NCBI GenBank assembly: GCA_964388845.1
Contig: CAYMCD010000001.1
Span: forward strand, 36,556 to 98,312
Origin: an uncultured Verrucomicrobiota bacterium
Lineage (GTDB): Bacteria > Verrucomicrobiota > Kiritimatiellia > CAIVKH01
Length of the DNA stretch: 61,757 nt
Direction: 5' to 3'
Positions 16,672-47,926 of the stretch are shown piece by piece; within the stretch, counting starts at the first letter, position 1, and every line of letters starts with the position of its first letter. The notes beneath the pieces were generated by a model. The model saw only the letters and a program-made list of their open reading frames with translations. It was not told the origin of the DNA and made no database searches. The translations under genes and the position numbers were made by a program.

Positions 16672-16693
16672 TCGCCGGTTTCACAACCGCTTC

Positions 16694-20015: not shown

Positions 20016-20044
20016 GCACCGCCAACCCCACCCCCTGATCCCTT

Positions 20045-22257: not shown

Positions 22258-22353
22258 TCCCGGTCTCGCCTCATCGTCCGATCGGGGACGAATTGGATTT
22301 ACGGGTTCCCCTATCTTTTGTATGAAAAGTATAATGCGCTGGAGTCGCTTCAT

Positions 22354-24030: not shown

Positions 24031-24132
24031 CCCTGCCGGATCCGTTCACCGCGCCCCCGCAAAAAGAAGCTTTTTTTCATCACGCGGCTTGCGATACCTT
24101 CGCCGCAACAACATGAAGGACGCAGGGTCTAC

Positions 24133-27847: not shown

Positions 27848-27874
27848 CCGGCAAGCCGCTAAACTGACGCAACG

Positions 27875-28765: not shown

Positions 28766-28833
28766 ACCGAAGACCATAGACTGTAGGATGTAGACTCGAA
28801 TCAACCAATCAACGAATAAACCAATCCCCAATC
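28763..28833 (+). promoter_or_regulatory. AT-rich intergenic region with phased short direct repeats (candidate operator/promoter for the GT2-synthase/giant-gene unit)
   Basis: TAGAC occurs at 28763, 28777 and 28791, an exact 14-nt phasing. AACCAATC occurs at 28803 and 28819, and CCAATC again at 28828. GC is much lower than in the flanks. Confidence 0.3.
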
Positions 28834-28842
28834 GCCACCCCC

Positions 28843-30003
28843 ATGCTCCACGCCCTGTTCTGGCTGTCTCTGGCCGGTCTCTTCTACATCTACCTCGGTT
28901 ATCCAGCCCTGGTGGTGCTGCGGGCCCGCCTGTCGCCCCGTCCGGTTCGCAAGGCTCCGTTCCGGGCGCCGGTGAGCGTGGTCATCTCGGTGTACGGCGA
29001 GGCCGCCAAACTGGGGCCCAAGTTGCGTTCCCTGCTCGACGGGGCCGACGCGGATCTTATCCACGAGATCCTCGTGGGCTCCGATGGATCGCCGGACGAC
29101 GTGGCTTCGGCTGTGGCGGACGCGGGGGATGCGCGGATACGTCTCTTCGCCTTTCCGCAGCGCCGCGGGAAGCCCAGTGTATTGAATGACCTCATGGCCC
29201 TTTGCGCCGGCGAGATTGTCGTTTTCACCGACGCCCGGCAACCGGTCGACCCGGGGGCCTTGCGCGCCCTGCTTTCCAATTGCGCGGACCCATCGGTCGG
29301 CGTTGTGTCAGGCGAGCTGGTGTTCGTTGAAGAGGAGGGTTCGACCGCCGCCGCGCGCGGGATAGACGCGTACTGGCGGTATGAAAAAATGATCCGGGAC
29401 GCCGAGGGCCGGATCGGGTCGGTGCCCGGCGCCACCGGCGCGCTTTATGCGATCCGGCGCGAATGCCTTCGCGCGCTTCCCGCGGGCGTCCTCCTGGACG
29501 ACGTGGCGATCCCTTTCATGGCCATTTTCCAGGGGAAGCGGTGCGTGTTTGAAGCCGAAGCAAAAGTTTATGACGTCATTGTGCGGGATGCGGGGCGCGA
29601 GGCGGTGCGCAAACGCAGGACGATTGCCGGCAACGTGCAACTTCTTCAATATTGGCCGTCCCTATTGAACCCGTTCAGGAATCCCGCATGGTTCGCTTTT
29701 GTGTCGCACAAAATCGCGCGGTTGATTTCGCCGTTCCTCCTTTTCGCAATACTGATCGCAAACGCGGCTCTGCTCGCATCCGTGAAACCGTTTTACTTGA
29801 TAGCCTTCGCGCTTCAGATTTCATTTTGGTCGGCTGCATTGATCGGTTGGGTGGCCCACCGCATGGAAAAGTCATTCGGATTTGTGGGTGTACCATTCAT
29901 GTTCATCGCGTTGAACATCAGCACATTGCTGGCCCTGTCCGACGCCCTTCGTGGGCGTTATTCGGTCAAGTGGACCCGCTCGGACGGAGAAGTCGCCGCA
30001 TAG
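28843..30003 (+). CDS. Membrane-embedded GT2 (COG1215 / PgaC-BcsA-like synthase architecture), 386 aa
   Basis: N-terminal TM helix, then the GT2 core (VSVVISVYGE, VGSDGSPDD, VFTDARQ, LLDDVAIP). An R-K-R-R-T-x-x-G motif (RKRRTIAGN) sits where processive synthases carry Q-x-x-R-W. Three or more C-terminal TM helices follow. Confidence 0.75.
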   Translation: MLHALFWLSLAGLFYIYLGYPALVVLRARLSPRPVRKAPFRAPVSVVISVYGEAAKLGPKLRSLLDGADADLIHEILVGSDGSPDDVASAVADAGDARIRLFAFPQRRGKPSVLNDLMALCAGEIVVFTDARQPVDPGALRALLSNCADPSVGVVSGELVFVEEEGSTAAARGIDAYWRYEKMIRDAEGRIGSVPGATGALYAIRRECLRALPAGVLLDDVAIPFMAIFQGKRCVFEAEAKVYDVIVRDAGREAVRKRRTIAGNVQLLQYWPSLLNPFRNPAWFAFVSHKIARLISPFLLFAILIANAALLASVKPFYLIAFALQISFWSAALIGWVAHRMEKSFGFVGVPFMFIALNISTLLALSDALRGRYSVKWTRSDGEVAA

Positions 30004-30106: not shown

Positions 30107-33100
30107 ATGAATAGAGCTGGTGACATTTTGAAAGGTTCCGCAATGAAGTTCAGCCGTCCTTTCCCGTCCAGACGGTTCGTTTTTTTCAACCCGGCGATCC
30201 TGCTGGCGGCGGCGTTCTTCGGCTTCCTGATGCCCGCGCACGGGACGTTGTATTACCTCAACGATCTCAGCATGAGTGGCGACGTGTACGCCGGAGCGGT
30301 CGGCAGCGATGCGAACGACGGATTGGCCCCCGCGACGCCGAAACTGACGTTCACGAATTTGCTGGCGACTTACAATCTCGTGGCGGGCGACGTGGTCTAC
30401 ATTGACACCGGCACGTACACGAACTACAGCACGACCATCACGAATGCCGGCACGGGCGGCAGCCCGATCATTATCCAGGGGAGTACGAACTATCCCGCGG
30501 GAGGGACGGTCTTCGACCGGCGCAGCAGCTCGTTCAACGTGATCACGCTGTTGTCGGCGCGCAACATCAACCTCCACGACCTGACGCTGCGCGGCGGCCA
30601 GAACGGGTTTGGCGCGAATGCGATCACCAACGTGATCCTGGACCGCGTTCTGTCGGTCAGCAATTCGAGCGGATTCTTTCTCGGCAATTCGTCGGTGGTG
30701 TTCCTGCGTCGGTGCGCGTCGGCGCGCAATTCGGTGGGGCTGGACGTGCCGAGCGGCGGCCCTATTTACTGGGATCAAGGGGTGATGTGGAGCAACACCA
30801 CCTCGATCAACATCCCGGGAACGGTCAGCGTCAGCAACAGCGTGATCGTGGGCGGCATATTGTACTCCTCGCTGAGCGCGCGCCCGCTCGATTATACGAT
30901 TCTCTGGAATGTGACATATCCGGGCGGGGCCGATTACCTGTCGGATTTTATCGCGGCGACGACCAACGACGGCCGCATCGCGGTGGTGGATCCGCTGTTC
31001 GCGAATCCGGCCGGATTTGATTTTCACGTGAGCAGCGTCGTAGGGCGCCACAACCCGGCCACGGGCCTCCGGGTGACGGACCTTGTGCATTCGGTAGCCA
31101 TTGATTTCGGCAATCCGGCCCTCGCGTATACGAACGAACCGGAGCCGCGCGGCGAGGCCATCAACGTGGGGCTCTTCGGTCATCACCCGGAAGCGAGCCA
31201 GAGCCCGACGAATCCCTGGTATTTCGCCTATTCCTACAACGATGGCGGCACGTTGACCGGGACCGGTTCCCTGCGCTGGACGTATGGCGCGGTATCGAAC
31301 GGGACCACGGTGCGTCTGCAGTATTCCACCGACAGCGGGACGTCCTGGTCCAACATCGCGTCCGGCCTGTCCGTGACAAACCGGCAGCACACCTGGGTCG
31401 CCACCGGCACGGTGTCTTCGCTCAACATGATCTGGAGGGTGCAGGACGAAACGCTGACCAATGTGTGGGACCGCTCCGACAGCAACTTCACGCTCAAAGC
31501 CTCGGCCGGCGTCACCTTCACGGCCTATGTCAACGATACGACCACGGCGGGTGATGTGTACTGTTCGGCGGCCGGGTCCGCGGGTAATGACGGGTTGAGT
31601 CCCGCGACGCCGCGGACCGACCTGCCGGGCGTGCTCGATGCCTACGATTTCGGGCCGGGCGACGTGATTTATGTGGACACGGGCCTGTACACCACGCGTG
31701 TTGCCATCGCGGCGGCGGATCGCGGGTCGGGCGGGCTGCCCCTGATGATCATCGGGAGCACGAATCTGCCGGCGGGAGGCAGCAACATTGACCGCGGCGG
31801 CGGCTCGGTGGATGGCATTTCCATCGGTTCGAGCGCCAATTTTATCCACCTGTACAACCTCACGGTGCGCAACAGCCGGTACGCCATTGACCAGTTCCAG
31901 AGCCAGGCCTGCGAGTTTCATGACATGCGGATGTACAGCAATCTGAACGGCTATCGCGGGGTCACCGTGTTCAGCAACCGGTTGCTGCGATGCCTCGCGG
32001 TGGGGAATGGCGTCGGTTTCGAGTGGTCGGGCGGCGGGGCCAACCTGCTCGATCTCTGCGTGTCGTGGAGCAACACGTCCCACCTCGGTTTCGGTGGTTC
32101 CGGGGTCGGCGCCGTGAGCAACACGATCATCGGCGGCGGCGGCACCGCGTTCGGCGGCGCCGCGGCGCCGAGCAACTCGAACCATCTGCTCTTCTGGAAT
32201 GTCTCCCTCGGCGGCGGTTTCATCAGCCTGTACGATTTTCAGAAGAGCCGGAACGGTTCCTGGCAGAGTTCATTCGGCGATCCCGCCTTCGCCGGGCCGA
32301 CCAACCTGCCCTATTACCTGTCGAGCACGGCGGGCCGTTACGATCCGCTGACGGATTCCTTCGTGACGGACGCCGTGTATTCGGCGGCGATTGATTTCGC
32401 CGATCCGCTGCGTCCGGTCGGCGATGAAACCGCGCCGAACGGGAGCCGGGTGAATGCGGGCATCCACGGCGGCACGGTGTTTGCGAGCCGGAGCGCGACT
32501 TCCTTTGTGCTCCGCGCGCTTTCGCTCCAGGACGGCGGCCAGCTGTCGGTCGGCGACAGCGTCTACTGGAGCGCGGTCAACGCGCCCACCGGCGCGACGG
32601 TGCGGATCGAGTTCTCCGGCGACGGCGGATTCTCGTGGAACACCGTGGCGACCAATCTGGCGGCCACGAATGGCGTCTATGCGTGGACCTCGACCAATCA
32701 TCCTTCGTCCACGCTGGCGCGGTGGCGCGTCGTGTACGAGAGCGATCCCCTGGTGCTGAGCGTGCTCGGAACGAACTTCACGTTCCGGAACGGCCCGTTT
32801 CTCTATTACCTGAACGACAGCAGCACGACGGGGGACCTCTACACGACGGCCGCCGGCAGCGACGCCAACGCGGGTTCTACGCCGGCCTCGCCCAAGGCCA
32901 CGTTCACCAATCTGCTGGCCACGGTGGACCTGGAACCGGGCGACGTCGTTTACATTGACACCGGCCGGTACCGGTCCTCTGTGACCCCGGTGATCACCGT
33001 CTCGGACTCGGGCGTGGCGACGAACCTGGTGATTTTCCAGTTCAGCACGAATTGGGTCGCCGGCGGCGCGATCCAGGACCGGTTGGCCGCGGGGATCGGG

Positions 33101-36100
33101 TTGGATTTCGCGTCGGGCTCCGGCCATGTGGATATCCGCAACGCGGTGATGACCAACTGCACGGTCGGCGTGCGGGTGACGTCGGCCACCGGCGTCCGTT
33201 TGACGGGCGCGCGCTTCGCCCACATGAAGGAAAACGGAATCGTGCTGGTCGGGGCGGTTTCGGCCACGGTCGAGCGGTGCGCGGTCTATCTGAACGCCAC
33301 CAACGGCTTGTCCGTCAGCGGGACCTCCTCGGCGCATATCCGTCATTCGGTGTTCTGGCGGAACCGGGGCGCGCAGGTGGCGGTGGACGGCGGCGTGGTC
33401 TCGATCACGAACAGCATCCTCGTCACGGCGGGCTCGGGCGCGCCGGTCTACCGGGTGGCGACCGCGACCAACATCCAGGCCAACTACAACGGCGTATTCG
33501 CGGAATCGAACGCGGCGATCGCCGCCGTGGGCACGCTGGCGGAGGGCCTGGACACGCTTTCCGCCTGGCAGCACTGGACGGGGCAGGACCGGTTGAGTCT
33601 CGACGCCGACCCGTATTTCGCCGATCCCGTCAACGGGGATTTCCACCTGAAGACGCAGACGGCCGAGGGGCGCTACGACCCGCTCTCGGGGCTGTTCTTA
33701 AGCGACCCCGTGACGTCGCCGATGATTGACGCCGCCGATCCGGGCTCAGGGTTCTCCAACGAACCCGCCCCTAACGGATCGAGGGCCAATATCGGGATGT
33801 TCGGGAACACCTCCGAGGCGAGCCGCGGCCGGACGGCCGCGTGGCTGCTGGCGGCCTCGCTCCGCCAGGGCGGCTGGGTCAAGGGCACGGCCACGCTGCA
33901 CTGGGTGGCGGGCAATTTGGCCACCGACAGCCATGTCCGCGTGGATATCTCCCTCAATGGCGGCCACTCCTGGCAGACGCTGTCCACGGGCGTCGTACTC
34001 GCGGCCGAATCCGTCGCATGGGACACCACGGCCACCAACAATACGCCCGCCGGATTGTGGCGCGTGGTCAGCCTGGCCGACACAAATGTGTCCGATTCGA
34101 CCACCAATTTCTTTGCCGTCCGCAACGCGACCCTGGCGCTCTACCTGAATGACGCCGCCACCAGCAACGATACGTACACCTCGGCGGCCGGCGCCGCCAC
34201 CAACTGGGTGGCCACCGCGGCGCAGCCCCTCAACTCGCTCGCGCTGGCGGTCTCCCGCTTTGACCTGGAGCCCGGCGATGTCCTCTATGTGGATGCAGGA
34301 ACCTACGCCGAAAATGCGAACATCGAATTCACCCGCCTGGATGGCGGGCTGACGAACCAGCCTGTTTTGATCCTGGGTCCGACCAATGGCTTCCGGGCCA
34401 TCCATCAGCGCGGGTCCACCGCCGTGGGATCGGTCGGCGTCTCTTTCTCGGGTACTCGCGCCGTGGCGCTGTCCAACCTCGTGTTCCATGGCGCGCGGGT
34501 GGGGGTGCAGGTGGATTCATCCGCCCATCTTTCGCTCGGCATCGGCGCCACGGCCAACAGCTCGAACGGCTTCTCGATCATCACCTCGACCAACATCAGC
34601 CTCCGCCGCGTGTTCTCGTCCGCCAATGGCGGTCGCGGGCTCTTCCTGGGGACGAACACGACGGTCGTCCTCGAACACGCCGTCCTATGGAGCAACACCC
34701 TGGGCGGCCTGCAGCTCCGGTCGGGGACGGTGGAAATCAGCAACAGCGTGGTGCACGCGACGGGAACGGGGCGCTATGCGTACGAGCTGAACGCGACGAC
34801 AGACGTGCTCCGCGCCAATTTCAACAACGTCGTCATGGAGTCCTCCGCGCAGGCGATGTTGCGGGCCGGACAGGCGCTTCGCTTCCTGTCCAATGTGCGT
34901 TCCACTCTGGGCCAGGAACTCAACAGTTTGAGCCACCCGCCCGGCTTCGCGGATTCGGGCGCCCTCGATTTCTCGCTGGCGAGCGAGGCCGGCCGCTTCG
35001 CCCCGGGTTCAGGGATCGTGACGGACGGGGTGACTTCGGTGATGATTGATTCGGGGGATCCGGCCCGTTCCGCCGCGGTCGAACCGGCGCCGAACGGCGA
35101 ACGGGTGAATATCGGGCTCTACGGGCAGACGGACCGGGCGAGCTTCAGCCGCACGAATGCCTGGCTGCTGGCCGTGACCCTCAATGACGGGGGTGTTGTC
35201 CGGGGCACGAACGCCATCTACTGGGTGGCGGGCGGCGTCGCGACGGGGCACCTGGTGACCGTCCAGTTCTCCGCGGACGCCGGCGCGACGTGGACGAATG
35301 TTGCGACCAACCTGACGGCCGCCACGGGGATCTACACCAACTGGGATACCACGGTGCACGGATCAACCTTGCTCGGCTACTGGCGCGTGGTCAGCGAGAG
35401 CGACACGAATGTCCTGGACGTCACGGATGCGCCGTTTGTGTTGAACAACGGGGCGCTGACGTACTACGTCAACGACGGTTCGACGAACGGGGACGTATAT
35501 GCCACCGCGCCCGGAGCCTCCCTCAACGACGGATCGCTTCCCAGCGCGCCGGCGGCGTCCGTGGAGGAAATCCTATCCCGGTACGCTCTCAACGCCGGGG
35601 ACCGGATACTGATAGACACCGGGACTTACTCGCTGAACGCCACCTTCCTCGTGGACGGCACGATCGTCGGATCCGCCACCAATCCCATCGTCTTCCAGGG
35701 CAGCACGAATGTGGCGGCCGGCGGGACGGTGTTTGACCGGAACCAGGGCGACACCGCGATCGAACTGCGGGGCGCGGTGGGCCTGAGCCTGCGTGATCTC
35801 GTTGTCCGCCGGGCGCGCCGCCCCTTTTACGTCAACGGCGTGACCAATGTGTCCTTCGAACACGTGGGCGTCGAGGGCGGCAAGGATTTCCTGACCCAAC
35901 CCTTCGGCTATGAAATCCAGAATTCGTCAACGGTGCTGCTGAACCGCTGCGCCGTTTACGGGGTCACGAATGCCAATGGCGTGGCCATCCGGGCATCCAC
36001 GGTCGTCGGATTGCGCCTGCTCAACTGCGTTTCATGGTCGAACCAACTGGCCCTGGAGGTCATCTCCAGCCAGGCGGTGGTCTCCAATTCCACGTTTTCG

Positions 36101-39100: not shown

Positions 39101-42100
39101 GACGCGGGCGCGCCGCTGAGCGCGTTCGGCTCGGAAACCGCGCCCAACGGAGGGCGCCTCAATCTGGGGCCGCAGGGGAATACCGCGCGCGCCAGCCGGA
39201 CGCCCACCAACTCCGCGCTGTTGACGGTGTCGTTGAACGACGGCGGCCGCGCCGAGGGCTCGACCTGGCCGCTGTTCTGGCTCGCGCGCGGCAACGCGAC
39301 TGGGCACACCGTGCGCCTCGAATACTCCAGCAACACCGGCGTGAGCTGGTCCGTCATTGCGACCGGCCTGCCGGCCCGCGTCGTCTCGCCGTACTTCTGG
39401 GACTCCACCGCCTTTACGTCTACCGTGCACAGCCTGTGGCGGGTCGCGAGCGAGATCGAGTCCGGCGTGCAGGCGAGCAATGCGCGCCCCTTCGCCCTGC
39501 GGAACCAGGGCCTTCGCTTCTACGTGAACGACAGCGCCGTGACGGGCGATGTCTATACCGCCGCGCCGGGCGATTCGGGGGGGAACGGAACCGATCCCGC
39601 CCAGCCGCGCGATTCGCTTCAAAGCGTGCTGGACAGCTACGACATCGAGCCGGGCGACGTCATTTATCTGGATACCGGCGTGTACCAGTTGGCCGACACC
39701 CCGATCCGTTGGAGCCGTTTCGACGCCTGGAACAGCATGACGAATCTGGCGGCCTTGCAGGCCGGCGGCATCAGCGTACTGCTGCAGGGCAGCACGAATG
39801 TGATCGCCGGCGGCAGCCTGTTGACCGCGATTGACAGCCCTGTCGCGCTGGTGCTCACACAGGCCCTGGGCGTGGCCGTCAAGAATGTGGATATCCGGCG
39901 GGTGGTCGCCGGATCTGGCGTCGGTATCGAAGTGGTGGATTCCCAGTATGTGAGCCTGCAATGGATGCAGATCCGGAACGGCTCGGATGGATTCTACATC
40001 AACCAGAGTTCCTTCGTGGGCATCAGCAATGCGCTGGCCCAGGGCCATTCCATCGCCGGGCTGCGCACCCGGCTGTCCAGCGACACCCGGTGGCAGGGTG
40101 GTGTCCTGTGGTCCAATACCTACGGCGTCCTTCAGGATGACGGTGCGGCGGGATCCCTGACCGTCCTCAACACCGCGTTCGGCGCGGTGCGGACGGGCGC
40201 GTTTGCGATCATTCGCGTGCAGGGCGTTTTGAGCTCGGACTACAACGACATCTTCCGCACGAACGGGGGCTTCACGGCGGGATTGATCCAGGGCGGTTCC
40301 ATCGGCGGCGGCACCACCCGCTACGAAACCGTCACCAGCTGGTTCAACCAATCCGGCAACGACGGGCGCACGCTGGCCTCGGATCCCCGTTTTGCGAGTC
40401 TCTCGGACTTTCACCTGCAGAGCCCGGAGGGCCGGTACGTCACCGGAACGGGGTTCATCACCAACGTGTCGGACGCCTTCTCCCCGCTGATTGACGCCGG
40501 GAACCCGTCGTCGCCCTACGCGCTCGAGTCGGCGCCCAATGGCGGCCGGGTGAACATCGGAGTCTATGGCAACTCGCCGGAGGCGAGCCGGTCGCCCTCC
40601 AACGGCCTGCTGACGACCATCACGTTCAACGACGGGGGCAGCGCGGAGGGGACGATAGAGCTTCGCTGGAACGCCAGCGGCGTCGCGACCGGACAGTTCG
40701 TGACGATCCAGTTCTCCAACAATGGCGGGTTGACCTGGACGAATGTGGCGACCAATGTGCCGGGCAATCTCGGCAGCTACTCGTGGAACAGCGCGCCGTA
40801 TGGCCGCGCCGCCGCGGGGCTGTGGCGCCTCTTCAGCCAGACCGACACCAACGTGCAGGACGTCACGGACAGATTCTTCGCCCTGCGCAACGGCGGATCC
40901 ATCCCGTATTACGTAAATGACGGCGCCACGGCGGGCGACGTGTATTGCACTTCGGCGGGGAACGACGACTTTGACGGCTACCTGCCCTCCACGCCGAAGG
41001 CCACCCTGCAGGCCCTGCTGGCGGCGGTGGACCTGGAACCCGGCGATATCGTGTACGTTGACACCGGCACCTACCTGCTGTCGCAGACGTTGACCGTGGG
41101 CGACCTCGATGCCGGAACGGCGTCCAATCGAGTGGTGATCCAGGGAAGCACCAACCGGGTGGCGGGTGGGACGGTCTTCAACCGGCAGACGGGCGCCGGC
41201 ACGGGAATCGAAATCTTCCAGACCGCGGGCATTGAGCTGCGCGACCTGCGGGTCATCAATGCGGCTATCGGTGTTTCGCTGCGCGAGGCGGATCAGTGCA
41301 AGATCGTGAGGGTCCGCAGCGATCTTCACAACAGCGCCGCGTTCTCCTCGGATCTTGTCGGGACGAATCTCTTCGAGGGCTGCATCGCGGCCTTTTCCTC
41401 CAATGGCCTGATCGCCGCGAGCGGCTGGGTGCAATGGCACAATGGGATCATCTACGGAAATGGATCCCCGATCCTGCTGAATTCCTCCGGATCCCTCGAT
41501 ATACGGAATTCGTTCGTGTCCGCGGTCGGCTCGTCCCGCCGCATCTTCAGCGTGACGGAAAGCGGCGGTTCGATAACCGCCGATTACAACAGCTACCGCC
41601 GCCAGGAAAACGCCCTGCTTTATGAGCGGACCCGCTCGATCGGGGGCCCGGAGATTTACCCCAGTCTGACCGACTGGCAGTTGGCGTACGGACAGGACCT
41701 CCGTACCCTGACGATGGATCCGCTGATGGTGAATCCGGACGCCGGCGAATTCAATCTCCAGAGCGCCACCGGCCGGTTCCTCGAAAACGGCTCGCTGACC
41801 AACGATCCGGGCGTGTTCTCCCCGTTGATTGATACGGGAGATCCCGCCTTCGCCTACACCAATGAGACGGGCCCGAATGGGGGACGCATCAATATCGGCA
41901 ACTTCGGAAACACCCCCTTCGCCAGCCTGAGCCAGACCAATCCCTGGCTGCTGGCCTTGAGCTTCAACGACGGCGGCACGATCCGGGGCACCGTCACGGT
42001 ATACTGGGCGGCGGGCGGCATGAGCAGCACCAACCTCGTCCGTCTCGAGCAGGCGCTGGACGGCGTGGATTTCACCCCGTTCGCCAGCAATATCCCGGCG

Positions 42101-45100
42101 TTCGCCGGATCGTACACGTGGGACGTGTCCGCCCTCCCGCCGTCGCCGCTGGCGCGCTGGCGGGTGGTCTGCGAGGCCTGCTCCGCCTCGGATCAGAACG
42201 ATGCGTCGGTCTACATCCGCAACAGCGCGTTGACCATTTATATCAATGACGGCGACACCGCCGGCGATGTCTACACCTCGGCGGAAGGTCACCCGACGAA
42301 TTCCGGACTGTCGGCCGACAGCCCGCTGCACGATCCGGATTGGGCCTTCCAGAAATTCATCTTGGGCCCCGACGACGTTATCTACATTGATACCGGGTCC
42401 TACACCTTGACCAACAGCGCGGGCATGCAGATCGGCCTCGTCGGTTCCGTGCTCGAACAGGGGCTCAGCAACCAGCCGATCCGCATCCAGGGAAGCACCA
42501 ATACGCTGTCCGGGGGATCCCTGATCGCCGGTCTGGCCTCGTCCAATGCGTATGCCATGCAGATTCTCGACACCCGGAATGTCGAAGTGGCTGATGTGCG
42601 TTTGTCCGGATCGGGGAGGGGCCTGCAAATCACCCGCTCGACCGACATCTCCTTGCGCCGCATCGAGCTCTTCGAGCACTCTCTGGATGGGTTGTCGGTC
42701 TCTCTGAGCGCCCCGGTGATCGCGGATCGGCTGGTGAGCAGGGATAACGCCGGTTACGGAATCCAGGCTGACAGCGATGCCATGGTCCAGCTCGACCATG
42801 GCGTCCTCTGGGACAATACCAAGGGCGCCATCACGCTCTCGGCCTCGCAGCTGTGGATGACCAATTCGATTCTCCACTCCTCGGTGACGAACACCTATCT
42901 GGTCAGCGCGGCCGGGACGACGCTGTCGGCCTTCGGCGACTACAACATTTTCTGGGTCACCAACGGCGCCGAGATCGGGCGGGACCAGACCCGGCAGCTG
43001 TTCGCCCGCAACCTGAAGGCCTGGCAGGTCCTGGCCGGCGGTGACACCAACAGCGCGGTCCTGGATCCATTGCTGGCGCAGCCGGGCCTTGGCGATGTCC
43101 ACCTGATGAGCGAGGCCGGCCGTTTTAATCCGGCCACCACCTCCTTTGTGCTCGATGCCGCGACGTCCTGGGCGATTGACGCGGGGGAACCGGCCGCCGA
43201 TGCCTCCGAGGAGACGGCGCCCAACGGCGGGCGCGTCAATGCCGGCCGGTATGGCGGGACGGTGGAAGCGAGCCGGACCATGACCAATTCCGCGACGCGC
43301 GCCGTCCGTATCGTCAGCTTCAACGACGGCGGGCAGATGACCGAGGCGCAGCCGCTCAACTGGTATGCGCGCGGTTATACCGGGTTGCAGTCGCTTCGCC
43401 TGGAGTACTCCGCGAACAATGGCCTCACCTGGAGCACCGTGGCCACCAATATCCCGGCCACGAACCAGACCTATTTCTGGAGCCCGCATCCCACCAATTC
43501 CTCCCCCGTGGCCCTCTGGCGGCTGGTGGATGAATCTGATCCTGCGCGGGCGGTCACCAATCAAAGGACCTTTGCCCTGCGCCTGCAGCCCCTGGTCTTC
43601 TACGTAAACGATGCCTCCACCACGGGCGATATCTACGCCACCGCCGTCGGGAGCCCGACCAACAATGCGCTGACGCCGGGCTCGCCGATGGATTCCATCG
43701 CGGATGTGGTGGACCGATACGACCTGGAATCGTTCGATCAAATCCTCGTTGACACCGGGTATTATGTGATCACCAACGCCGTCCGCCTTCGCTCGGACGA
43801 TGGCGGCGTCAACACGAATTATGTGTACATTACCGGAAGCACCAACCGGCTCGCGGGCGGGACCCAGCTCGACCGCCAGAGCGCCAATCTCGGATCGTTG
43901 CTCGAGACGGATGAAATATTCAACATCCTCGATTCCAGCTTCTTCGACATATCGCATCTGACCCTGCTGAACGCCAACGCCGCGATTTCGCTGAACCTGG
44001 CGAGGTCCTGCGTGTTCAGCAATATCGTCATCACGAGCGGCGGGCGGACCGGCATCGAAAGCGCAGGTGGTGGGCCCAATTATTACCGCCGGATCCTCGT
44101 CACCGATCATCTGGGCTCCGGCCTGGTCCTGGCGGAGATCGCGTATATTGACAGCAGCGTCGTATGGTCGAACGGGGGCAGCGCCATCCTCGCCAATGCC
44201 GGCGCGCTGTACATTTCAAATTCGGTCCTCCACGCCACCGGCACCAACTACTGCTACCGCCTCGGCGAATCGGCGGTGGTGCGGGCGGATTTCAACGACT
44301 TGTATACCGTCGGCGGCTCGCGCCCGGCGCTGCTCGGAAACCTTGAACTGGAGGGGCTGCCCCAGTGGACCCTGCTGTCGGGAGAGGATGCGCGAAGCGT
44401 GTCCATAGATCCGCTGTTCTACGATCCGCTGAACATGGATTTCCATCCGCGGAGCCCGGCGGGCAGATTCGATCCCGTCAGCGGGGTCTATGTGGTCACG
44501 GATGCCGTCTACTCGTACCTGGTGGACACCGGCGCGACCAACCACCCCTACGCATCGGAACCCGCCCCGAACGGCGAGCGGCGGAATATCGGCCTGCACG
44601 GAGACACCTCCCAGGCCTCCAAGGGAAGGACCAACGAATGGCTGCTGGCCCTGACCGGTTCGTCCGGCGGCCGGTTGTCCGGCCAGTTCAACCTCCATTG
44701 GGCCTGGGGCCAGATGGACCCGACCAACACGGTGCACATTGACTTCTCCTACGATGACGGGACCAACTGGATCCGCGTCGCGACCAATCGCCCGGTGAGT
44801 TCCGGGCAGTTCTTCTGGGATACGACCACGGAGCCGCTGGCGGTCACGCCGATCGCCCGGTGGCGGCTGCTCAAAGTGGCCGACACCAATGTGTACGACG
44901 TCACCGACCTGTCGTTCGCCCTGAACGGGCCGTTCGGATTCTATGTGAACGACTCCAGCACGAATTGCGACGTCTTTACGACGGCGGTGGGGACCAACTC
45001 CAACCTGGGCATCTATCCCTCGATCCCGAAGGCCTCGCTGCGCGACGTCGTGGAAACCTGGGACATGGACGCGGGCGACACGGTGTACATTGACACCGGC

Positions 45101-47926
45101 TACTATCCCATGAGCACGAATGACCTCATCGTGATCGGGGATTCGGACGCCGGTCTGTCCGGCGAACCTGTCCGGTTTGTCGCGAGTACCAATTGCCTGG
45201 GCGCGCAATTCGAATGGATTGAAGTGGATGGATCGCCCTACCTGGTTCGCCTGCAGGGATCCCACTTCGATCTCGAAGGCTTCAGCTTCTACAAGTCGGG
45301 CGTGGAAGCGCTGGGAACCAACATCGCGCTGCGCAATGTGACGCTGAGCAATGCGGTGGCGTTCCTGGCGGGCGCGGACACGGTGGTCTCCAATATGAAT
45401 GTCATCGGGGGCACGGTGCAATCCGCGGGGCGCAACCAGAACCTGACCCGCATCATTGTGCGCGGCGGATTCATCCAGTTGAACGGCAGCGAGGTCACGC
45501 TGCAGAATTCGCTGGCCTATGGGACACAAACCGTTTCGGCGACGATCGGCGGAACCAATATCACGCTGATCAACAACTCGCTGGTGGCGCGCCGGACCGC
45601 GGTGATCGTGGATGGCGGCGACGCATCGGCGACGCTTCGCAACAACATCATCGTGGCGGACGGCGACCAGGGCGATGCGTTCGCGATCCAGATCAAGTCC
45701 GGCGCCATTAATTCGGATTACAACAACATCGTCGCGCGCAACCGCGCCTGGATCGGCAATGTGGACGGCTACTGGGAGCGGTTGCTGTACTGGCAGCGCG
45801 CGTCCGGCCAGGATCTCAACAGCATTTCGGTGGAGCCGCTGTTCGCCGATGAGTCGAACGGCGACCTGCATCCCCAATCCACCGCCGGACGCTGGACCCC
45901 GTTGGGATTTGTGATTGATCCGCAGCACGCGATGACGATTGACCTCGGTTCGCCCAGTTCCTCGTTCGCTCGGGAGACCGCGCCCAACGGAAGCCGCATC
46001 AATCTGGGCGCGTTCGGCAACACCGCCGAGGCCAGCCGCAGCCGTGTGGATCCGTGGTTGTTCGCCATCACCATGAACGACGGCGGGGTGCTGAAGGGCA
46101 CCAATACGCTGCGGTGGGCGTCCGGCAACCTGACCAATGGGGCCACGGTCACCATCCGGTATTCGCCGGACAATGGCGCCAGCTGGACGAGTGTGGCCGC
46201 GGGGGTCACGGCGTCCGCCGGCCAGTACGAATGGGATTCAACCGGCTTCACGTCCAGCCTGCATGCCCTGTGGGATGTGGTTTTGGAAACCGACACCAAT
46301 GTCCGAGACCAGGTGGATGGACCCTTCGCGCTCCGCAACACCCCCCTGAATTTCTATGTCAACGACGCGGCCACGGCCGGCGATGTGTACACCCTCGCGG
46401 TGGGCGCGACCACCAACGACGGATTGACGACTTCCACCCCCATGCGCTGGCTGTCCGACCTGCTCGACACCTACGACACCGAAGGCGGAGACGTGGTGTA
46501 TGTGGATACCGGTTCCTACAGCCTGACCCAGAACGTCGTGGTGATCTGGTCGCGGGGCGGGGACCCCACGAACGGCCCGCTTTGGATCTGGGGGAGCACG
46601 AACTTCCCGTCCGGCGGATCGGTCTTCTCGCGCAATCTCCTTTCGCCGGATTCCGCGGCGTTGGATATCAAGGCCTCGCACGTGCGCGTCCGCAACATGA
46701 CCATGAAAAATGCGGCCGCCGGCGTGCTGCTGGACTCGAATCGCTTCGTGGTGATCGAGCGTATGAACCTGGTCAGCAACATGCAGGGCGTCGTGATCCG
46801 GAAATCGTTCGAGCCCGCCCTGCGCAACAACGTGTTCCGCCACAACGTCACCGGCGGCGTGGAGATCGTCCAGTCCGTGAGCAATACGGTGGAAAACAAC
46901 ACGTTCCACGCGAACCCCTACTATGGCATCCGTCTGGATAGCGCCGCCCCGAATGTGCTGCAGAACAATATCTTCAGCCTGAATACCACCAACACCGCGG
47001 CCTATGCCGGTGTCCTTGACGAAGTGTTCATTGATTACAACGTCTACTACTTCACGACGAATAACGTCGCGATCTTCGGATCCCAGAGCAACCTGCTGGC
47101 CTGGCAGTTGGCGACGGCCCGCGACTACCGGAGCGCGGCGACCAACCCCCTGTTTGCCAACCTGGCCGGCGGCGATTTCCACCTGGAGTCCTTCGCCGGC
47201 AGGTGGGTGGATGGCGCCGGCTTCACGTCGGATGTCCAGACCTCGTGGGCGGTGGACCGCGGGGCGACGAATTCGGCGTATGACCTCGAAGCCGTGCCGA
47301 ACGGCGCGCGCATCAATATCGGCGCCTACGGGAACACCGAATACGCCAGCAAGGGGCTGGTCAGCACGCAGATCGTGGTGGAGACCCGGATCCTCAACAC
47401 CCCGACGTTCATCCGGGAGACCAACTCGATCTGGCCGCTGATCTGGAGCGTGATCAACGTGCCCACCACCGAGCTGTTCCATGTGCAGTTCTCCGGCGAT
47501 GGCGGCGACACCTGGTACACGATCTCGAATAATGTGCCGGCGTACCGGGAGGTGATCGTGTGGCAGGCGAGCCCGTTCTTCAACACCTACCGGGGCCTCT
47601 GGCGCGTGGTCGGCGTGGGCGATACGAACTACTGGGATGTGAACGACGCCCAGTTCCAGCTCTTCTTCGGCACCTTCCGCGTCACCCAAATCTACTACGA
47701 CCAAAACACCAACGGAATCGTCTTCCGCGGGGCGTGGGATGAGCAGTACCAGGTCCAATGGGCGACCAATGTGTCCGGCAGCAACTATGTCTGGTGGGAC
47801 GCGGTGGACGGCACCGGCGCGCAGGAGCTCGCCAGCTTCCTGTCCACCAACGGCGGGGACTTCATCTACAGGGACCGCGACAGCACGAATCAGCGGTTCC
47901 GCCTCTACCGGGTGCTCCAGGAATAG
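30107..47926 (+). CDS. Giant secreted protein (5,939 aa) of 13 tandem right-handed beta-helix (PbH1/CASH-like) + Asp-box beta-sandwich modules
   Basis: A single stop-free frame of 17,820 nt. The ATG at 30143 yields the signal peptide MKFSRPFPSRRFVFFNPAILLAAAFFGFLMPAHG. The entry motif [FY]Y[VL]ND..GD[VL]Y...DLEPGD.[VI]Y[VI]DTG.Y recurs 13 times. PbH1-like turns, the cap motif DP.F.D...GDFHL.S..GR...SP.IDAGDP...EP.PNG.R.N.G..GNT and the Asp-box S.D.G.[ST]W recur in nearly every module. Confidence 0.9.
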   Translation: MNRAGDILKGSAMKFSRPFPSRRFVFFNPAILLAAAFFGFLMPAHGTLYYLNDLSMSGDVYAGAVGSDANDGLAPATPKLTFTNLLATYNLVAGDVVYIDTGTYTNYSTTITNAGTGGSPIIIQGSTNYPAGGTVFDRRSSSFNVITLLSARNINLHDLTLRGGQNGFGANAITNVILDRVLSVSNSSGFFLGNSSVVFLRRCASARNSVGLDVPSGGPIYWDQGVMWSNTTSINIPGTVSVSNSVIVGGILYSSLSARPLDYTILWNVTYPGGADYLSDFIAATTNDGRIAVVDPLFANPAGFDFHVSSVVGRHNPATGLRVTDLVHSVAIDFGNPALAYTNEPEPRGEAINVGLFGHHPEASQSPTNPWYFAYSYNDGGTLTGTGSLRWTYGAVSNGTTVRLQYSTDSGTSWSNIASGLSVTNRQHTWVATGTVSSLNMIWRVQDETLTNVWDRSDSNFTLKASAGVTFTAYVNDTTTAGDVYCSAAGSAGNDGLSPATPRTDLPGVLDAYDFGPGDVIYVDTGLYTTRVAIAAADRGSGGLPLMIIGSTNLPAGGSNIDRGGGSVDGISIGSSANFIHLYNLTVRNSRYAIDQFQSQACEFHDMRMYSNLNGYRGVTVFSNRLLRCLAVGNGVGFEWSGGGANLLDLCVSWSNTSHLGFGGSGVGAVSNTIIGGGGTAFGGAAAPSNSNHLLFWNVSLGGGFISLYDFQKSRNGSWQSSFGDPAFAGPTNLPYYLSSTAGRYDPLTDSFVTDAVYSAAIDFADPLRPVGDETAPNGSRVNAGIHGGTVFASRSATSFVLRALSLQDGGQLSVGDSVYWSAVNAPTGATVRIEFSGDGGFSWNTVATNLAATNGVYAWTSTNHPSSTLARWRVVYESDPLVLSVLGTNFTFRNGPFLYYLNDSSTTGDLYTTAAGSDANAGSTPASPKATFTNLLATVDLEPGDVVYIDTGRYRSSVTPVITVSDSGVATNLVIFQFSTNWVAGGAIQDRLAAGIGLDFASGSGHVDIRNAVMTNCTVGVRVTSATGVRLTGARFAHMKENGIVLVGAVSATVERCAVYLNATNGLSVSGTSSAHIRHSVFWRNRGAQVAVDGGVVSITNSILVTAGSGAPVYRVATATNIQANYNGVFAESNAAIAAVGTLAEGLDTLSAWQHWTGQDRLSLDADPYFADPVNGDFHLKTQTAEGRYDPLSGLFLSDPVTSPMIDAADPGSGFSNEPAPNGSRANIGMFGNTSEASRGRTAAWLLAASLRQGGWVKGTATLHWVAGNLATDSHVRVDISLNGGHSWQTLSTGVVLAAESVAWDTTATNNTPAGLWRVVSLADTNVSDSTTNFFAVRNATLALYLNDAATSNDTYTSAAGAATNWVATAAQPLNSLALAVSRFDLEPGDVLYVDAGTYAENANIEFTRLDGGLTNQPVLILGPTNGFRAIHQRGSTAVGSVGVSFSGTRAVALSNLVFHGARVGVQVDSSAHLSLGIGATANSSNGFSIITSTNISLRRVFSSANGGRGLFLGTNTTVVLEHAVLWSNTLGGLQLRSGTVEISNSVVHATGTGRYAYELNATTDVLRANFNNVVMESSAQAMLRAGQALRFLSNVRSTLGQELNSLSHPPGFADSGALDFSLASEAGRFAPGSGIVTDGVTSVMIDSGDPARSAAVEPAPNGERVNIGLYGQTDRASFSRTNAWLLAVTLNDGGVVRGTNAIYWVAGGVATGHLVTVQFSADAGATWTNVATNLTAATGIYTNWDTTVHGSTLLGYWRVVSESDTNVLDVTDAPFVLNNGALTYYVNDGSTNGDVYATAPGASLNDGSLPSAPAASVEEILSRYALNAGDRILIDTGTYSLNATFLVDGTIVGSATNPIVFQGSTNVAAGGTVFDRNQGDTAIELRGAVGLSLRDLVVRRARRPFYVNGVTNVSFEHVGVEGGKDFLTQPFGYEIQNSSTVLLNRCAVYGVTNANGVAIRASTVVGLRLLNCVSWSNQLALEVISSQAVVSNSTFSAFGSAASAYRIALGAAVSGNYNNFDLRNGAVLARETVNILSPSLTGVQTYDSLTSWQRVKGVDLRSLSHEPDFADPDTYDFHLRSQGGRWQPGVGVVTDLVSSVLLDAGDPGIAPAGEPSPNGGRINIGRYGNTVDASRTPTNGRLTAVALNDGGIAAGTNVTLYWIAGGDVTNHQLRVDISYDDGFAWVLLASNLAGTVSTLQWDTTSWLTQPLVRWRVQSQVNSNIVDLNDRWFQIRNSNVVYYVNDGNLTGDVYTTAAGYEFNNGLASNMPKPFINDVLEQYDLEPGDTIYVDTGVYSPTGVVTWGYQDSGSAAERVALYGSTNRAAGGSDLVLGMQLDNARSLMIQDLVVSATGAVRNFGLNLQSVSNLWVTDVAVRGAPGNGFAVRESTAVLFERCAVAGAVTNGLFDTGSSGTRWLSGVLWSNRTGLRSQALAAGPLAMSNTLVAALAANQIGLIVASNAWSDYNAYWVTNGAQVANEFVTGREFPLQYLSVGRWAADTLRDTHTLAVNPDVVPDPVGYYLRSQAGRFDPSTGLFTNDATTSPLVDAGDPLAVATNEPAPNGERLNIGLQGNTDRASKTPTNASLLVVSLRDGGVARAEQLLYWVARGDATGHTVLVEYSPDMGLTWTNVATNVPASGGSYTWTSTSFPSTVLGLWRVSSESQPAVTDISRQPFAVRNGPVLFYVNDAATAGDVYSLVAGSETNLGVSPASPLLDLQDLLDRYDLEPGDVVYVDTGSYSNSASISIGQQDSGSSSGLGDVIIQGSTNEAAGGSRMVAVSAQPVFEVFDGRYISFRDVRLDAGAGSGFLLQKTIAIRFDRVAVRNGQYAFQTIDSQQTVWRQCVAQDYLTAGLAGQSAASLNWEAGVFWSGGTSAVQLANASLSMSNSIVGAWGANRFVYRLDFNSTLNSDYNGVWLDEGAMMGYQTVLSPLKYPMIWETLSRWARDTGRDRFSVFGDPRFHDSTNGSFYLRSEGGRFDPVAAAFTNDTVTSPFIDAGAPLSAFGSETAPNGGRLNLGPQGNTARASRTPTNSALLTVSLNDGGRAEGSTWPLFWLARGNATGHTVRLEYSSNTGVSWSVIATGLPARVVSPYFWDSTAFTSTVHSLWRVASEIESGVQASNARPFALRNQGLRFYVNDSAVTGDVYTAAPGDSGGNGTDPAQPRDSLQSVLDSYDIEPGDVIYLDTGVYQLADTPIRWSRFDAWNSMTNLAALQAGGISVLLQGSTNVIAGGSLLTAIDSPVALVLTQALGVAVKNVDIRRVVAGSGVGIEVVDSQYVSLQWMQIRNGSDGFYINQSSFVGISNALAQGHSIAGLRTRLSSDTRWQGGVLWSNTYGVLQDDGAAGSLTVLNTAFGAVRTGAFAIIRVQGVLSSDYNDIFRTNGGFTAGLIQGGSIGGGTTRYETVTSWFNQSGNDGRTLASDPRFASLSDFHLQSPEGRYVTGTGFITNVSDAFSPLIDAGNPSSPYALESAPNGGRVNIGVYGNSPEASRSPSNGLLTTITFNDGGSAEGTIELRWNASGVATGQFVTIQFSNNGGLTWTNVATNVPGNLGSYSWNSAPYGRAAAGLWRLFSQTDTNVQDVTDRFFALRNGGSIPYYVNDGATAGDVYCTSAGNDDFDGYLPSTPKATLQALLAAVDLEPGDIVYVDTGTYLLSQTLTVGDLDAGTASNRVVIQGSTNRVAGGTVFNRQTGAGTGIEIFQTAGIELRDLRVINAAIGVSLREADQCKIVRVRSDLHNSAAFSSDLVGTNLFEGCIAAFSSNGLIAASGWVQWHNGIIYGNGSPILLNSSGSLDIRNSFVSAVGSSRRIFSVTESGGSITADYNSYRRQENALLYERTRSIGGPEIYPSLTDWQLAYGQDLRTLTMDPLMVNPDAGEFNLQSATGRFLENGSLTNDPGVFSPLIDTGDPAFAYTNETGPNGGRINIGNFGNTPFASLSQTNPWLLALSFNDGGTIRGTVTVYWAAGGMSSTNLVRLEQALDGVDFTPFASNIPAFAGSYTWDVSALPPSPLARWRVVCEACSASDQNDASVYIRNSALTIYINDGDTAGDVYTSAEGHPTNSGLSADSPLHDPDWAFQKFILGPDDVIYIDTGSYTLTNSAGMQIGLVGSVLEQGLSNQPIRIQGSTNTLSGGSLIAGLASSNAYAMQILDTRNVEVADVRLSGSGRGLQITRSTDISLRRIELFEHSLDGLSVSLSAPVIADRLVSRDNAGYGIQADSDAMVQLDHGVLWDNTKGAITLSASQLWMTNSILHSSVTNTYLVSAAGTTLSAFGDYNIFWVTNGAEIGRDQTRQLFARNLKAWQVLAGGDTNSAVLDPLLAQPGLGDVHLMSEAGRFNPATTSFVLDAATSWAIDAGEPAADASEETAPNGGRVNAGRYGGTVEASRTMTNSATRAVRIVSFNDGGQMTEAQPLNWYARGYTGLQSLRLEYSANNGLTWSTVATNIPATNQTYFWSPHPTNSSPVALWRLVDESDPARAVTNQRTFALRLQPLVFYVNDASTTGDIYATAVGSPTNNALTPGSPMDSIADVVDRYDLESFDQILVDTGYYVITNAVRLRSDDGGVNTNYVYITGSTNRLAGGTQLDRQSANLGSLLETDEIFNILDSSFFDISHLTLLNANAAISLNLARSCVFSNIVITSGGRTGIESAGGGPNYYRRILVTDHLGSGLVLAEIAYIDSSVVWSNGGSAILANAGALYISNSVLHATGTNYCYRLGESAVVRADFNDLYTVGGSRPALLGNLELEGLPQWTLLSGEDARSVSIDPLFYDPLNMDFHPRSPAGRFDPVSGVYVVTDAVYSYLVDTGATNHPYASEPAPNGERRNIGLHGDTSQASKGRTNEWLLALTGSSGGRLSGQFNLHWAWGQMDPTNTVHIDFSYDDGTNWIRVATNRPVSSGQFFWDTTTEPLAVTPIARWRLLKVADTNVYDVTDLSFALNGPFGFYVNDSSTNCDVFTTAVGTNSNLGIYPSIPKASLRDVVETWDMDAGDTVYIDTGYYPMSTNDLIVIGDSDAGLSGEPVRFVASTNCLGAQFEWIEVDGSPYLVRLQGSHFDLEGFSFYKSGVEALGTNIALRNVTLSNAVAFLAGADTVVSNMNVIGGTVQSAGRNQNLTRIIVRGGFIQLNGSEVTLQNSLAYGTQTVSATIGGTNITLINNSLVARRTAVIVDGGDASATLRNNIIVADGDQGDAFAIQIKSGAINSDYNNIVARNRAWIGNVDGYWERLLYWQRASGQDLNSISVEPLFADESNGDLHPQSTAGRWTPLGFVIDPQHAMTIDLGSPSSSFARETAPNGSRINLGAFGNTAEASRSRVDPWLFAITMNDGGVLKGTNTLRWASGNLTNGATVTIRYSPDNGASWTSVAAGVTASAGQYEWDSTGFTSSLHALWDVVLETDTNVRDQVDGPFALRNTPLNFYVNDAATAGDVYTLAVGATTNDGLTTSTPMRWLSDLLDTYDTEGGDVVYVDTGSYSLTQNVVVIWSRGGDPTNGPLWIWGSTNFPSGGSVFSRNLLSPDSAALDIKASHVRVRNMTMKNAAAGVLLDSNRFVVIERMNLVSNMQGVVIRKSFEPALRNNVFRHNVTGGVEIVQSVSNTVENNTFHANPYYGIRLDSAAPNVLQNNIFSLNTTNTAAYAGVLDEVFIDYNVYYFTTNNVAIFGSQSNLLAWQLATARDYRSAATNPLFANLAGGDFHLESFAGRWVDGAGFTSDVQTSWAVDRGATNSAYDLEAVPNGARINIGAYGNTEYASKGLVSTQIVVETRILNTPTFIRETNSIWPLIWSVINVPTTELFHVQFSGDGGDTWYTISNNVPAYREVIVWQASPFFNTYRGLWRVVGVGDTNYWDVNDAQFQLFFGTFRVTQIYYDQNTNGIVFRGAWDEQYQVQWATNVSGSNYVWWDAVDGTGAQELASFLSTNGGDFIYRDRDSTNQRFRLYRVLQE
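30248..47653 (+). repeat. 13 diverged tandem coding repeats, period ~1.27-1.41 kb
   Basis: Module starts (Y-x-N-D motif) lie at approximately 30248, 31520, 32801, 34138, 35459, 36828, 38162, 39515, 40904, 42233, 43595, 44935 and 46349. The last module ends near 47653. Copies differ extensively at the nucleotide level. Confidence 0.85.

Follow-up and report, generated by a model that had tools for sequence, protein, structure and literature searches.

A giant, putatively exported protein of thirteen positionally conserved beta-helix/Ig-like modules beside an envelope-glycan locus of a Kiritimatiellia bacterium

What purpose is served by a bacterial gene of 5,939 codons whose product is almost entirely one pair of domains repeated thirteen times? 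The question is raised by contig CAYMCD010000001.1 of an uncultured Verrucomicrobiota bacterium (Kiritimatiellia; CAIVKH01), of which we analyzed a stretch of 61,757 nucleotides (nt), called here the window. The open reading frame (ORF) in question, the giant gene, occupies window positions 30107-47926 on the forward strand and follows a cluster of envelope-glycan genes. Our best reading, to which we give a probability of roughly 45%, is that its product is a non-catalytic, fixed-length fiber or scaffold, exported by Sec and tied to the envelope glycan of the adjoining cluster. The giant protein is not categorically new, being a beta-helix repeat surface protein; its striking trait is the deep conservation of thirteen non-equivalent modules.

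Modules and predicted fold of the giant protein

The giant gene is a single uninterrupted frame of 5,939 codons plus a stop, as an initial annotation had read it from the sequence, and its G+C content by codon position (0.85 at third positions, 0.50 at second positions) is like that of the other genes in this 65% G+C window. The probable true start is ATG 30143, which has a ribosome-binding-site-like GAAAGG 9 nt 5' of it and which, by direct reading of the sequence, would open the Sec-type signal peptide that had been proposed for it (30143..30244, forward strand; MKFSRPFPSRR-FVFFNPAILLAAAFFGFLM-PAHG). In the leader (MKFSRPFPSRRFVFFNPAILLAAAFFGFLMPAHG), a basic N-region leads into a hydrophobic core and then into a cleavage region of small residues, after which module 1 begins at once; comparable leaders with AxA-like ends stand directly ahead of module 1 in the orthologues. 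The protein is net acidic and contains 0.3% Cys, 18% Ser plus Thr and 7% Asn. Lys makes up only 0.5% of it (31 of the 5,939 residues), compared to 2.0% in the window's other genes, and the depletion persists in low-G+C orthologues, which have 1.0-1.3% Lys against 3.9-4.9% in their own flanking genes. The leader, the low Cys, the net acidic charge and the low Lys are traits of secreted proteins and count for an exported fiber.

Using regular-expression landmarks and a MAFFT alignment to set boundaries, we divided amino acids (aa) 49-5860 into 13 tandem modules of 425-471 aa, the number that the initial annotation had given. All on the forward strand, these are module 1 (aa 49-473; 30251..31525), module 2 (aa 474-899; 31526..32803), module 3 (aa 900-1344; 32804..34138), module 4 (aa 1345-1785; 34139..35461), module 5 (aa 1786-2242; 35462..36832), module 6 (aa 2243-2686; 36833..38164), module 7 (aa 2687-3137; 38165..39517), module 8 (aa 3138-3600; 39518..40906), module 9 (aa 3601-4043; 40907..42235), module 10 (aa 4044-4497; 42236..43597), module 11 (aa 4498-4944; 43598..44938), module 12 (aa 4945-5415; 44939..46351) and module 13 (aa 5416-5860; 46352..47686). 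Pairwise identity among them is 28-43%, and at the DNA level the repetition is visible only as islands of 30-114 nt with 60-90% identity, spaced ~1.3 kb apart, indicating, as had been suggested, that the array is old and diverged.

The four-part layout described for each module was also borne out, since all four parts were seen in every module of the 13-way alignment: an entry motif (YYVND..GDVY...GD.VYVDTG.Y), an N/G/S-rich helix core, a cap motif (DP.F...DFHL.S..GR...S..ID.G.P...E..PNG.R.N.G..G.T..AS) and an Asp-box segment. The Asp-box, S-x-[DN]-x-G-x-x-W, stands at the same alignment column in 12 of the 13 modules. The initial annotation had the count right and the exception wrong: the module that lacks it is not module 10 but module 9, which reads LEQALDGVDFTPF and which is without an Asp-box in 10 of 11 species. 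The earlier description of the modules also missed a C-terminal, beta-rich domain of ~80 aa (aa 5861-5939, nt 47687-47923; 47687..47926 with the stop, forward strand), recognized from an alignment of 10 orthologue tails and conserved in all orthologues examined. Some of these tails carry an Asp-box of their own, such as YSDDFGKTW. The domain has no Pfam match and no transmembrane segment, LPXTG, PEP-CTERM or repeats-in-toxin (RTX) feature.

A fold of beta-helix plus beta-sandwich had been put forward beforehand as a point on which the initial annotation could be refuted, and profile searches with Beta_helix and NosD had been named as a check. Both families matched. Pfam Beta_helix (PF13229) gave E-values of 4e-19 and 3e-23 (bit scores of 69.2 and 82.7; cut-off 25.9), and Disaggr_assoc (PF08480) gave 9e-19 and 6e-23 (bit scores of 68.7 and 82.2; cut-off 22.6). 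The Disaggr_assoc match, longest in module 12, is limited to profile positions ~87-194, the C-terminal half of the profile, and lies over the final turns of the helix and the cap that closes them. The NosD match (E = 2e-6 and 2e-15) reflects only generic beta-helix repeats. Among NCBIfam models, only the generic parallel-beta-helix repeat TIGR03804 was matched (27.4 bits against a cut-off of 19.45), and the NosD maturation subfamily TIGR04247 scored 24.2 bits against a cut-off of 300. Module 13 gave the best Beta_helix, NosD and TIGR03804 matches. Over the Asp-box region, Reelin_subrepeat-B matched with E-values of 2e-11 and 5e-11.

An AlphaFold2 model of module 5, made from the 13-module alignment, reached a predicted local distance difference test score (pLDDT) of 87.2 and a predicted TM-score (pTM) of 0.86. 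It places a beta-helix with N- and C-terminal caps at residues 1-345, with short strands stacked over residues 48-310, and a ~95-aa beta-sandwich of about seven strands, holding one Asp-box, at residues 358-451. A Foldseek search of the PDB with this model gave no match at E ≤ 1e-3. Of the weaker neighbors, the best for the helix were PL31 alginate lyase, tailspikes and GH87, and those for the sandwich were Fab, sulfite-oxidase and Fn3-like immunoglobulin (Ig) folds. In the viral library, Foldseek matched generic phage "pectate lyase superfamily" and tail-fiber helices with E-values down to 3.5e-8. In a hidden Markov model (HMM) search of PDB sequences, a few beta-helix enzymes matched at E = 1e-4 or weaker, in their cap regions alone. 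The Pfam matches, the single-module model and the Foldseek neighbors thus agree on the predicted architecture of helix and sandwich, and the initial annotation is not refuted on this point.

The Asp-box is a structural hairpin that occurs in several folds. It had been taken initially as a mark of sialidase-type and related glycan-binding structures, a view that finds no support here: in the model each Ig-like sandwich of ~95 aa holds one Asp-box, rather than several being set in a six-bladed propeller, and the motif alone is no evidence of glycan binding. The Ig-like Asp-box domain (profile positions ~345-437) also occurs on its own, in 41-49 tandem copies, in other proteins of 4,100-5,400 aa (P0108, P0120, P0123, P0130, P0137, P0139, P0142, P0163 and P0167), suggesting that it is an independent, widely used repeat unit.

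We also noted a stop-free ORF of 2,277 codons on the reverse strand within the giant gene (37277-44110), and further long antisense ORFs are present. It fails the codon-position G+C filter for likely genes, and we take it to be a by-product of high G+C and codon bias.

Relatives and positional orthology

Scanning one genome per species with four modules as the query, we found 71 related loci. Complete 13-module ORFs of 5,924-6,037 aa occur at L001, L002, L005, L007, L008, L012 and L013, in metagenome-assembled genomes (MAGs) of Kiritimatiellia, Opitutia and other Verrucomicrobiota. L009, L018 and L019 are cut by contig ends, yet give 13 module matches each, and L003 gives at least 14. An HMMER search of 1.84 billion representative proteins returned 25,588 matches at E ≤ 1e-3 and 1,714 at E ≤ 1e-30. 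Among the matches listed are 31 relatives of 5,600 aa or more; 22 of these carry 13 full modules, neither more nor fewer, and are 5,865-6,015 aa long, and the others have 11, 12 or 14. Many relatives of ~5,860-6,015 aa are present in public MAGs of Lentisphaerota as well as of Kiritimatiellia and Verrucomicrobiota, so the uniqueness that the initial annotation implied has to be given up.

MAGs or metagenomes are the source of all these giant relatives. Relatives of smaller size, with 3-10 modules, are found in Desulfobacterota, Planctomycetota, Proteobacteria and others, and some relatives have larger modules of ~950 aa; the cultured strains Ferruginivarius sediminum, Aquabacterium soli and Rhodopirellula sp. 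SM50 are among these smaller or larger-module relatives. The names given to the giant relatives are without exception generic ("right-handed parallel beta-helix repeat-containing protein," "hypothetical protein" or "NosD domain-containing"). We found no paper describing the 13-module family: a paper on Pontiella exopolysaccharide is silent on it, and a preprint on giant genes deals with other proteins. The statement that no protein of this architecture has been characterized therefore stands.

The closest relative is the 5,957-aa protein P0021 of L001 (Kiritimatiellia MAG AMR_MDS_0145), whose modules share 40-71% identity with the window's. This identity rises from 40% at the N-terminal end to 71% at module 13; across nine species the corresponding gradient is weak (conservation of 0.37 to 0.44), and we did not use it. 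When the 141 modules of eleven species were compared by all-against-all BLAST, the best cross-species match lay at the same module index in 1,186 of 1,410 cases (84%), compared to 7.7% expected by chance, and this was so for 108 of 130 comparisons that involved the window's modules. Same-position matching was almost perfect at positions 9, 11 and 12, with module 11 finding its own position in 110 of 110 species pairs; module 1 is the most variable position across species.

Positional orthology and the shared loss of the Asp-box from module 9 indicate that the 13-fold array was built before the sampled lineages split. It has since been kept without loss, gain, homogenization or shuffling of modules, which is unusual for repeat proteins and implies that each module is individually needed. 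The family is widespread and orthologous, and no characterized member of it was found. We would define the family of giant proteins by a leader, 13 positionally orthologous beta-helix/Ig modules, a C-terminal domain of ~80 aa and a length of ~5,900-6,000 aa, a definition under which the window's protein falls.

In one relative (L017 3250-20241, on a 1.4-Mb contig of Kiritimatiellae MAG FR_21), the orthologue is split into four consecutive ORFs of 785, 1,635, 1,176 and >2,180 aa. The split may reflect sequencing frameshifts or a pseudogene.

The residues conserved across the 141 modules fall in four places: the N-cap (YVND..D.Y..G..N.G..P…GD…DTG.Y…GSTN), an Asn/Ser ladder (positions WSN, SN and DYN), the C-cap and junction (P…D.H..S..GR…S…D.G.P…E..PNG.R.N.G..G.T..AS) and the sandwich (GG…W…V…S…G..W…W…WR…F). 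Mean conservation within positional orthologue groups was 0.63 for the N-cap, 0.46 for the helix core, 0.65 for the C-cap and 0.57 for the sandwich, which makes the caps and the Ig-like domain the conserved parts. We also aligned each group separately with MAFFT (10-11 species each). In the ~140-residue helix core, just 3-14 residues per group were kept at ≥90%. Most of these are Gly, Asn or Ser, and no orthologous module has more than one charged residue among them. Such a pattern is expected of a structural or binding helix and not of thirteen active sites.

Regular-expression searches of all 5,939 aa gave no occurrence of the AlgE/AlgG motifs DPH[DE] and YG[FI]DPH and none of W[IV]DH, RIK or [GS]HG, while NTD, [GQ]DD and R.P..R were each found once and never recurred among modules. 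The RTX-type motif GGxGxD also occurs once in the whole protein, in place of the series that AlgE-type R modules would supply. The lack of a conserved catalytic constellation argues against an enzyme, and the giant protein is probably non-catalytic. The initial annotation had offered a 13-site polysaccharide-modifying machine as one of two possibilities; the scarcity of conserved charged core residues and of epimerase, lyase and GH28 motifs speaks against it.

The adjoining glycan locus

The envelope-glycan genes, identified by Pfam, extend over ~30 kb upstream of the giant gene (322..30003). They encode a GT9 glycosyltransferase, several GT4s and GT2s, methyltransferases, a polysaccharide deacetylase, an MBOAT and AlgX-like O-acetylation pair, a PMT_2-like GT-C, a further large polytopic membrane protein, a GFO/hexapeptide protein, a DegT aminotransferase, two epimerase/dehydratases and an FG-GAP protein. 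Nearest to the giant gene are a GT4-type glycosyltransferase (26834..28072, reverse strand; Pfam Glycos_transf_1 / Glyco_trans_1_4), a GT2 glycosyltransferase (27875..28765, forward strand; Glycos_transf_2) and, directly upstream, a membrane-embedded GT2 (28843..30003, forward strand; Pfam GT2 families) with one N-terminal and about four C-terminal hydrophobic segments. The best solved relative of the last is 6YV7 (E = 4e-13), the archaeal membrane mannosyltransferase PcManGT. Its gene ends 103 nt before the giant ORF and 139 nt before ATG 30143, and no terminator-like site was found in 29800-30300, between the two genes. Promoter and terminator scans at both ends of the giant gene were uninformative; consensus promoters are not expected in this phylum.

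Orthologues of these three genes also stand upstream of giant genes elsewhere. For the GT4 they are 63% (L001), 71% (L073), 53% (L075) and 48% (L106) identical, and for the GT2 74% (L001), 54% (L009), 71% (L073) and 65% (L072). The membrane GT2 has orthologues directly or nearly directly upstream in L001 (61%), L002 (46%), L073 (62%), L085 (51%), L076 (49%) and L075 (45%). The order GT4, GT2, membrane GT2, giant gene is common to the window and L001, and L075 and L076 keep orthologues of the window genes at 13040, 13845, 15238, 16646 and 26834. In more distant loci (L005, L007, L010, L012 and L013), the giant gene is flanked by GT2, GT8, TylF-type methyltransferase, cytidylyltransferase or glycerophosphotransferase genes. 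Of 20 further non-redundant metagenome loci, seven have a GT2 gene immediately upstream and seven have a gene without a Pfam match; other upstream genes in this set encode UDP-galactopyranose mutase, a GDSL/AlgX-like protein, a methyltransferase and an EamA transporter. The proposed link between the giant gene and the adjacent glycan locus is thus upheld in close orthologues and echoed in distant ones, and the giant gene appears to be a stable member of otherwise variable glycan loci.

Downstream of the giant gene in the window are TrkH and TrkA genes, which converge on it. Eight related loci have instead a conserved gene of ~300 aa on the same strand, 2-4 nt past the giant gene's stop (L007 19908-20819, L012 18448-19353, L020 6655-7440, L085 20006-20935, L092 8613-9518, L096 16007-16939, L100 10352-11284 and L101 17193-18107). 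The product has an N-terminal VanZ-like part with about four transmembrane segments, which Pfam VanZ matches at sub-threshold E-values of 2e-4 to 4e-3, and a C-terminal domain of ~170 aa that is conserved and contains the motifs PVLA, YPGxF, R.DD..GNPPY and GWN. A role as membrane partner or anchor is possible. A tblastn search of the window found no homologue.

Several other features of the window deserve mention. At 8543-11456 (forward strand), an AlgI-like MBOAT gene is followed by one for an AlgX-type SGNH acetyltransferase and adjoins a polysaccharide deacetylase gene (7821-8753), which suggests that the polymer of the locus may be O-acetylated, de-N-acetylated or both. Two large polytopic membrane proteins are encoded at 15238-18361 (forward strand), the PMT_2-like GT-C (477 aa) and one without a Pfam match (571 aa); sequence searches gave no solved relative for either, and orthologues of both lie close to the giant gene in L075 or L076. 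The secreted FG-GAP repeat protein of 570 aa, encoded within the glycan locus at 22318-24030 (forward strand), had no homologue in the related loci, of which only short upstream flanks were examined. Across 56000-61757, the G+C content drops to 0.53-0.58. One protein encoded there, of 1,099 aa, contains a bacterial TSP3 repeat and weakly matches alpha-amylase; the protein that follows has a borderline PEP-CTERM motif. This segment may have been horizontally acquired, and the motif hints at an exosortase system in the organism. A tRNA scan of the window found none.

Proposed function, alternatives and known systems

In our preferred reading, the giant protein would be exported by Sec as a chain of thirteen units, none of which could stand in for another. 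In each, a capped right-handed beta-helix is predicted to precede an Ig-like Asp-box sandwich; no flexible linkers separate the units, and a small beta domain closes the chain. It would be made alongside, and act on or within, an envelope glycan, whether an extracellular polysaccharide (EPS), a capsule or an O-antigen-like polymer, and its most likely role would be the multivalent binding or organizing of the cell's own glycan or of foreign glycans. At an assumed ~5 nm per helix and ~4 nm per sandwich, the protein would be rod-like and, if extended, ~100 nm long. It would also have to be exported beyond the inner membrane and, as a surface fiber, to cross the outer one.

Several points weigh against this proposal. 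Glycan binding is an inference, and the putative ligand-side surfaces of the helix are poorly conserved even between positional orthologues. Variable surfaces would fit species-specific ligands; they would equally fit a purely structural role. Pfam, NCBIfam and motif tests gave no LPXTG, PEP-CTERM, RTX, two-partner secretion (TPS) or autotransporter feature, and the protein could stay in the periplasm. A two-module AlphaFold2 model, made from a staggered module-pair self-alignment of 1,480 columns, is of low confidence (pLDDT 70.6, pTM 0.50) and is no reliable guide to the geometry between modules, so the rod shape is conjectural. Finally, conservation of the neighborhood fades with distance, and some upstream genes are HipA-like or MotA/ExbB-like.

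The strict conservation of 13 distinct modules and of total length (5,865-6,015 aa) would also accommodate a fixed-geometry device in place of a generic sticky fiber, either a ruler or scaffold that sets the thickness or architecture of a glycan layer or an ordered extracellular "assembly line" in which every module has its own partner or its own step in handling the polymer of the locus. We regard this idea as doubtful; if true, it would be a kind of envelope organizer not described in bacteria. It is unlikely, too, that the role lies outside everything considered here.

The alternative that we take most seriously, though it too is unlikely, is that the giant protein is the substrate of its neighbors: a heavily glycosylated, S-layer-like or sheath-like coat whose Ser/Thr/Asn-rich modules are modified in the periplasm by the membrane GT2 and the GT-C. 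The relationship of the membrane GT2 to PcManGT, an enzyme of an archaeal N-glycan pathway, is consistent with this, as are the presence of the PMT_2-like GT-C and the second polytopic protein near giant genes elsewhere, the protein's content of Ser, Thr and Asn, and a glycosyltransferase complement that varies among species while the giant gene is constant. However, N-x-S/T sequons are not enriched (67 observed, ~73 expected), there are no Ser/Thr-rich linker tracts of the usual O-glycosylated type, and no self-assembly or anchoring domain was recognized. The ~30-kb locus, with its GT9, AlgI/AlgX-like acetylation and sugar-nucleotide enzymes, instead resembles an ordinary polysaccharide or lipopolysaccharide locus.

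Alternatively, the protein could be an AlgE-like multi-enzyme in which thirteen beta-helix sites processively modify the polymer of the locus, with the Ig-like domains as spacers or binders. Lyases, epimerases and glycoside hydrolases also use the beta-helix fold; rhamnogalacturonan lyase, GH110, PL31 alginate lyase and GH87 were matched weakly by profile or by structure; homology to Disaggr_assoc points to archaeal disaggregatase-type proteins; and the giant gene adjoins a locus with AlgI/AlgX-like genes. We nonetheless consider this reading improbable because no catalytic constellation is conserved across 10-11 orthologues, the signature motifs occur once or not at all, the PDB and Pfam matches fall on caps rather than on active-site regions, and Foldseek gave no PDB match at the threshold used.

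It is very improbable that the protein is a polyprotein, cut at junctions of the form F-x-[LV]-R-N / x-x-x-Y-Y-V-N-D into 13 distinct paralogous subunits, made 1:1 for a hetero-oligomer. The fixed number, order and individual identity of the modules and their highly conserved junctions would suit such a scheme, but rigid packing between domains would conserve the junctions equally well, and we found no protease domain, self-cleaving motif or precedent for what is a purely conjectural reading. An assembly artefact (a collapsed, expanded or chimeric array) or a pseudogene is hardly credible even though repeat arrays are error-prone in metagenome assemblies and the L017 relative is split into four ORFs, for the frame is intact over 17.8 kb, DNA identity between modules is too low for mis-assembly, and the same 13-module order recurs in many independent assemblies, so that the frameshifts or collapse that the initial annotation had named as grounds for doubt are unlikely.

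The usual fate of giant genes in the Planctomycetes-Verrucomicrobia-Chlamydiae (PVC) superphylum is to be set aside as repetitive adhesins or to be assigned a speculative role; the giant gene studied here belongs to a well-defined orthologous family. Through that family one can test how these bacteria, which are abundant anaerobes specialized on polysaccharides in rumen, digesters and sediments, make or employ their cell envelopes. It also provides 13 or more diverged natural beta-helix/Ig variants per genome, which can be used for structural and glycan-binding studies.

Among known systems, AlgE1-7 of Azotobacter vinelandii are modular secreted mannuronan C5-epimerases, and AlgG is periplasmic. 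As in the giant protein, a right-handed beta-helix module, of ~385 aa in AlgE, alternates with a smaller beta module, both systems are linked to an exopolysaccharide, and the window's locus has AlgI-like MBOAT and AlgX-like genes. In contrast to the 13 helices here, an AlgE protein contains just one A module or two; the small modules of AlgE are RTX beta-rolls that bind Ca and not Ig-like sandwiches, a difference reflected in the single GGxGxD of the giant protein; and the catalytic YG(F/I)DPH(D/E) or DPHD is absent from the giant protein, with no alternative conserved catalytic set in its place. The best specific Pfam match after the generic Beta_helix leads to the disaggregatase-related PbH1 proteins of Methanosarcina (PF08480), which are extracellular beta-helices tied to cell-envelope polysaccharide. 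These are archaeal, have a single domain or a few, and show neither a 13-fold array nor an Ig-like Asp-box partner, and their enzymology is not transferable. The beta-helices of phage tailspikes and depolymerases, the best structural neighbors in the viral library and among the weak PDB matches, are likewise glycan-recognizing. Tailspikes differ in being trimeric single helices with conserved catalytic acids, their TM-scores to the module are low (0.13-0.40), and the giant protein gave no sign of a trimerization or head-binding domain.

CdrA, LapA, SiiE and MpIBP are giant, acidic, Cys-poor secreted proteins of beta-repeats that act as surface rods or matrix cross-linkers, some of which bind their own EPS. 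The giant protein is like them in size, acidity, low Cys and beta-rich repeats. It differs from them in two respects: such adhesins carry signals for type I or two-partner secretion (RTX, TPS) that it does not have, and they consist of near-identical Ig-like repeats in variable copy number, whereas it has 13 diverged two-domain modules that are fixed in number and orthologous by position. A closer parallel in outline was reported in 2025 from Ca. Menyafoubacter, also of the PVC superphylum: a protein of ~6,000 aa with a Sec/signal peptidase I (SPI) signal, no transmembrane helix, tandem CASH domains and a "disaggregase" region, present in related MAGs, for which the authors speculate on a role in algal degradation or predation (PMC12057145). 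Likened by description only, that protein may be a relative of the giant protein.

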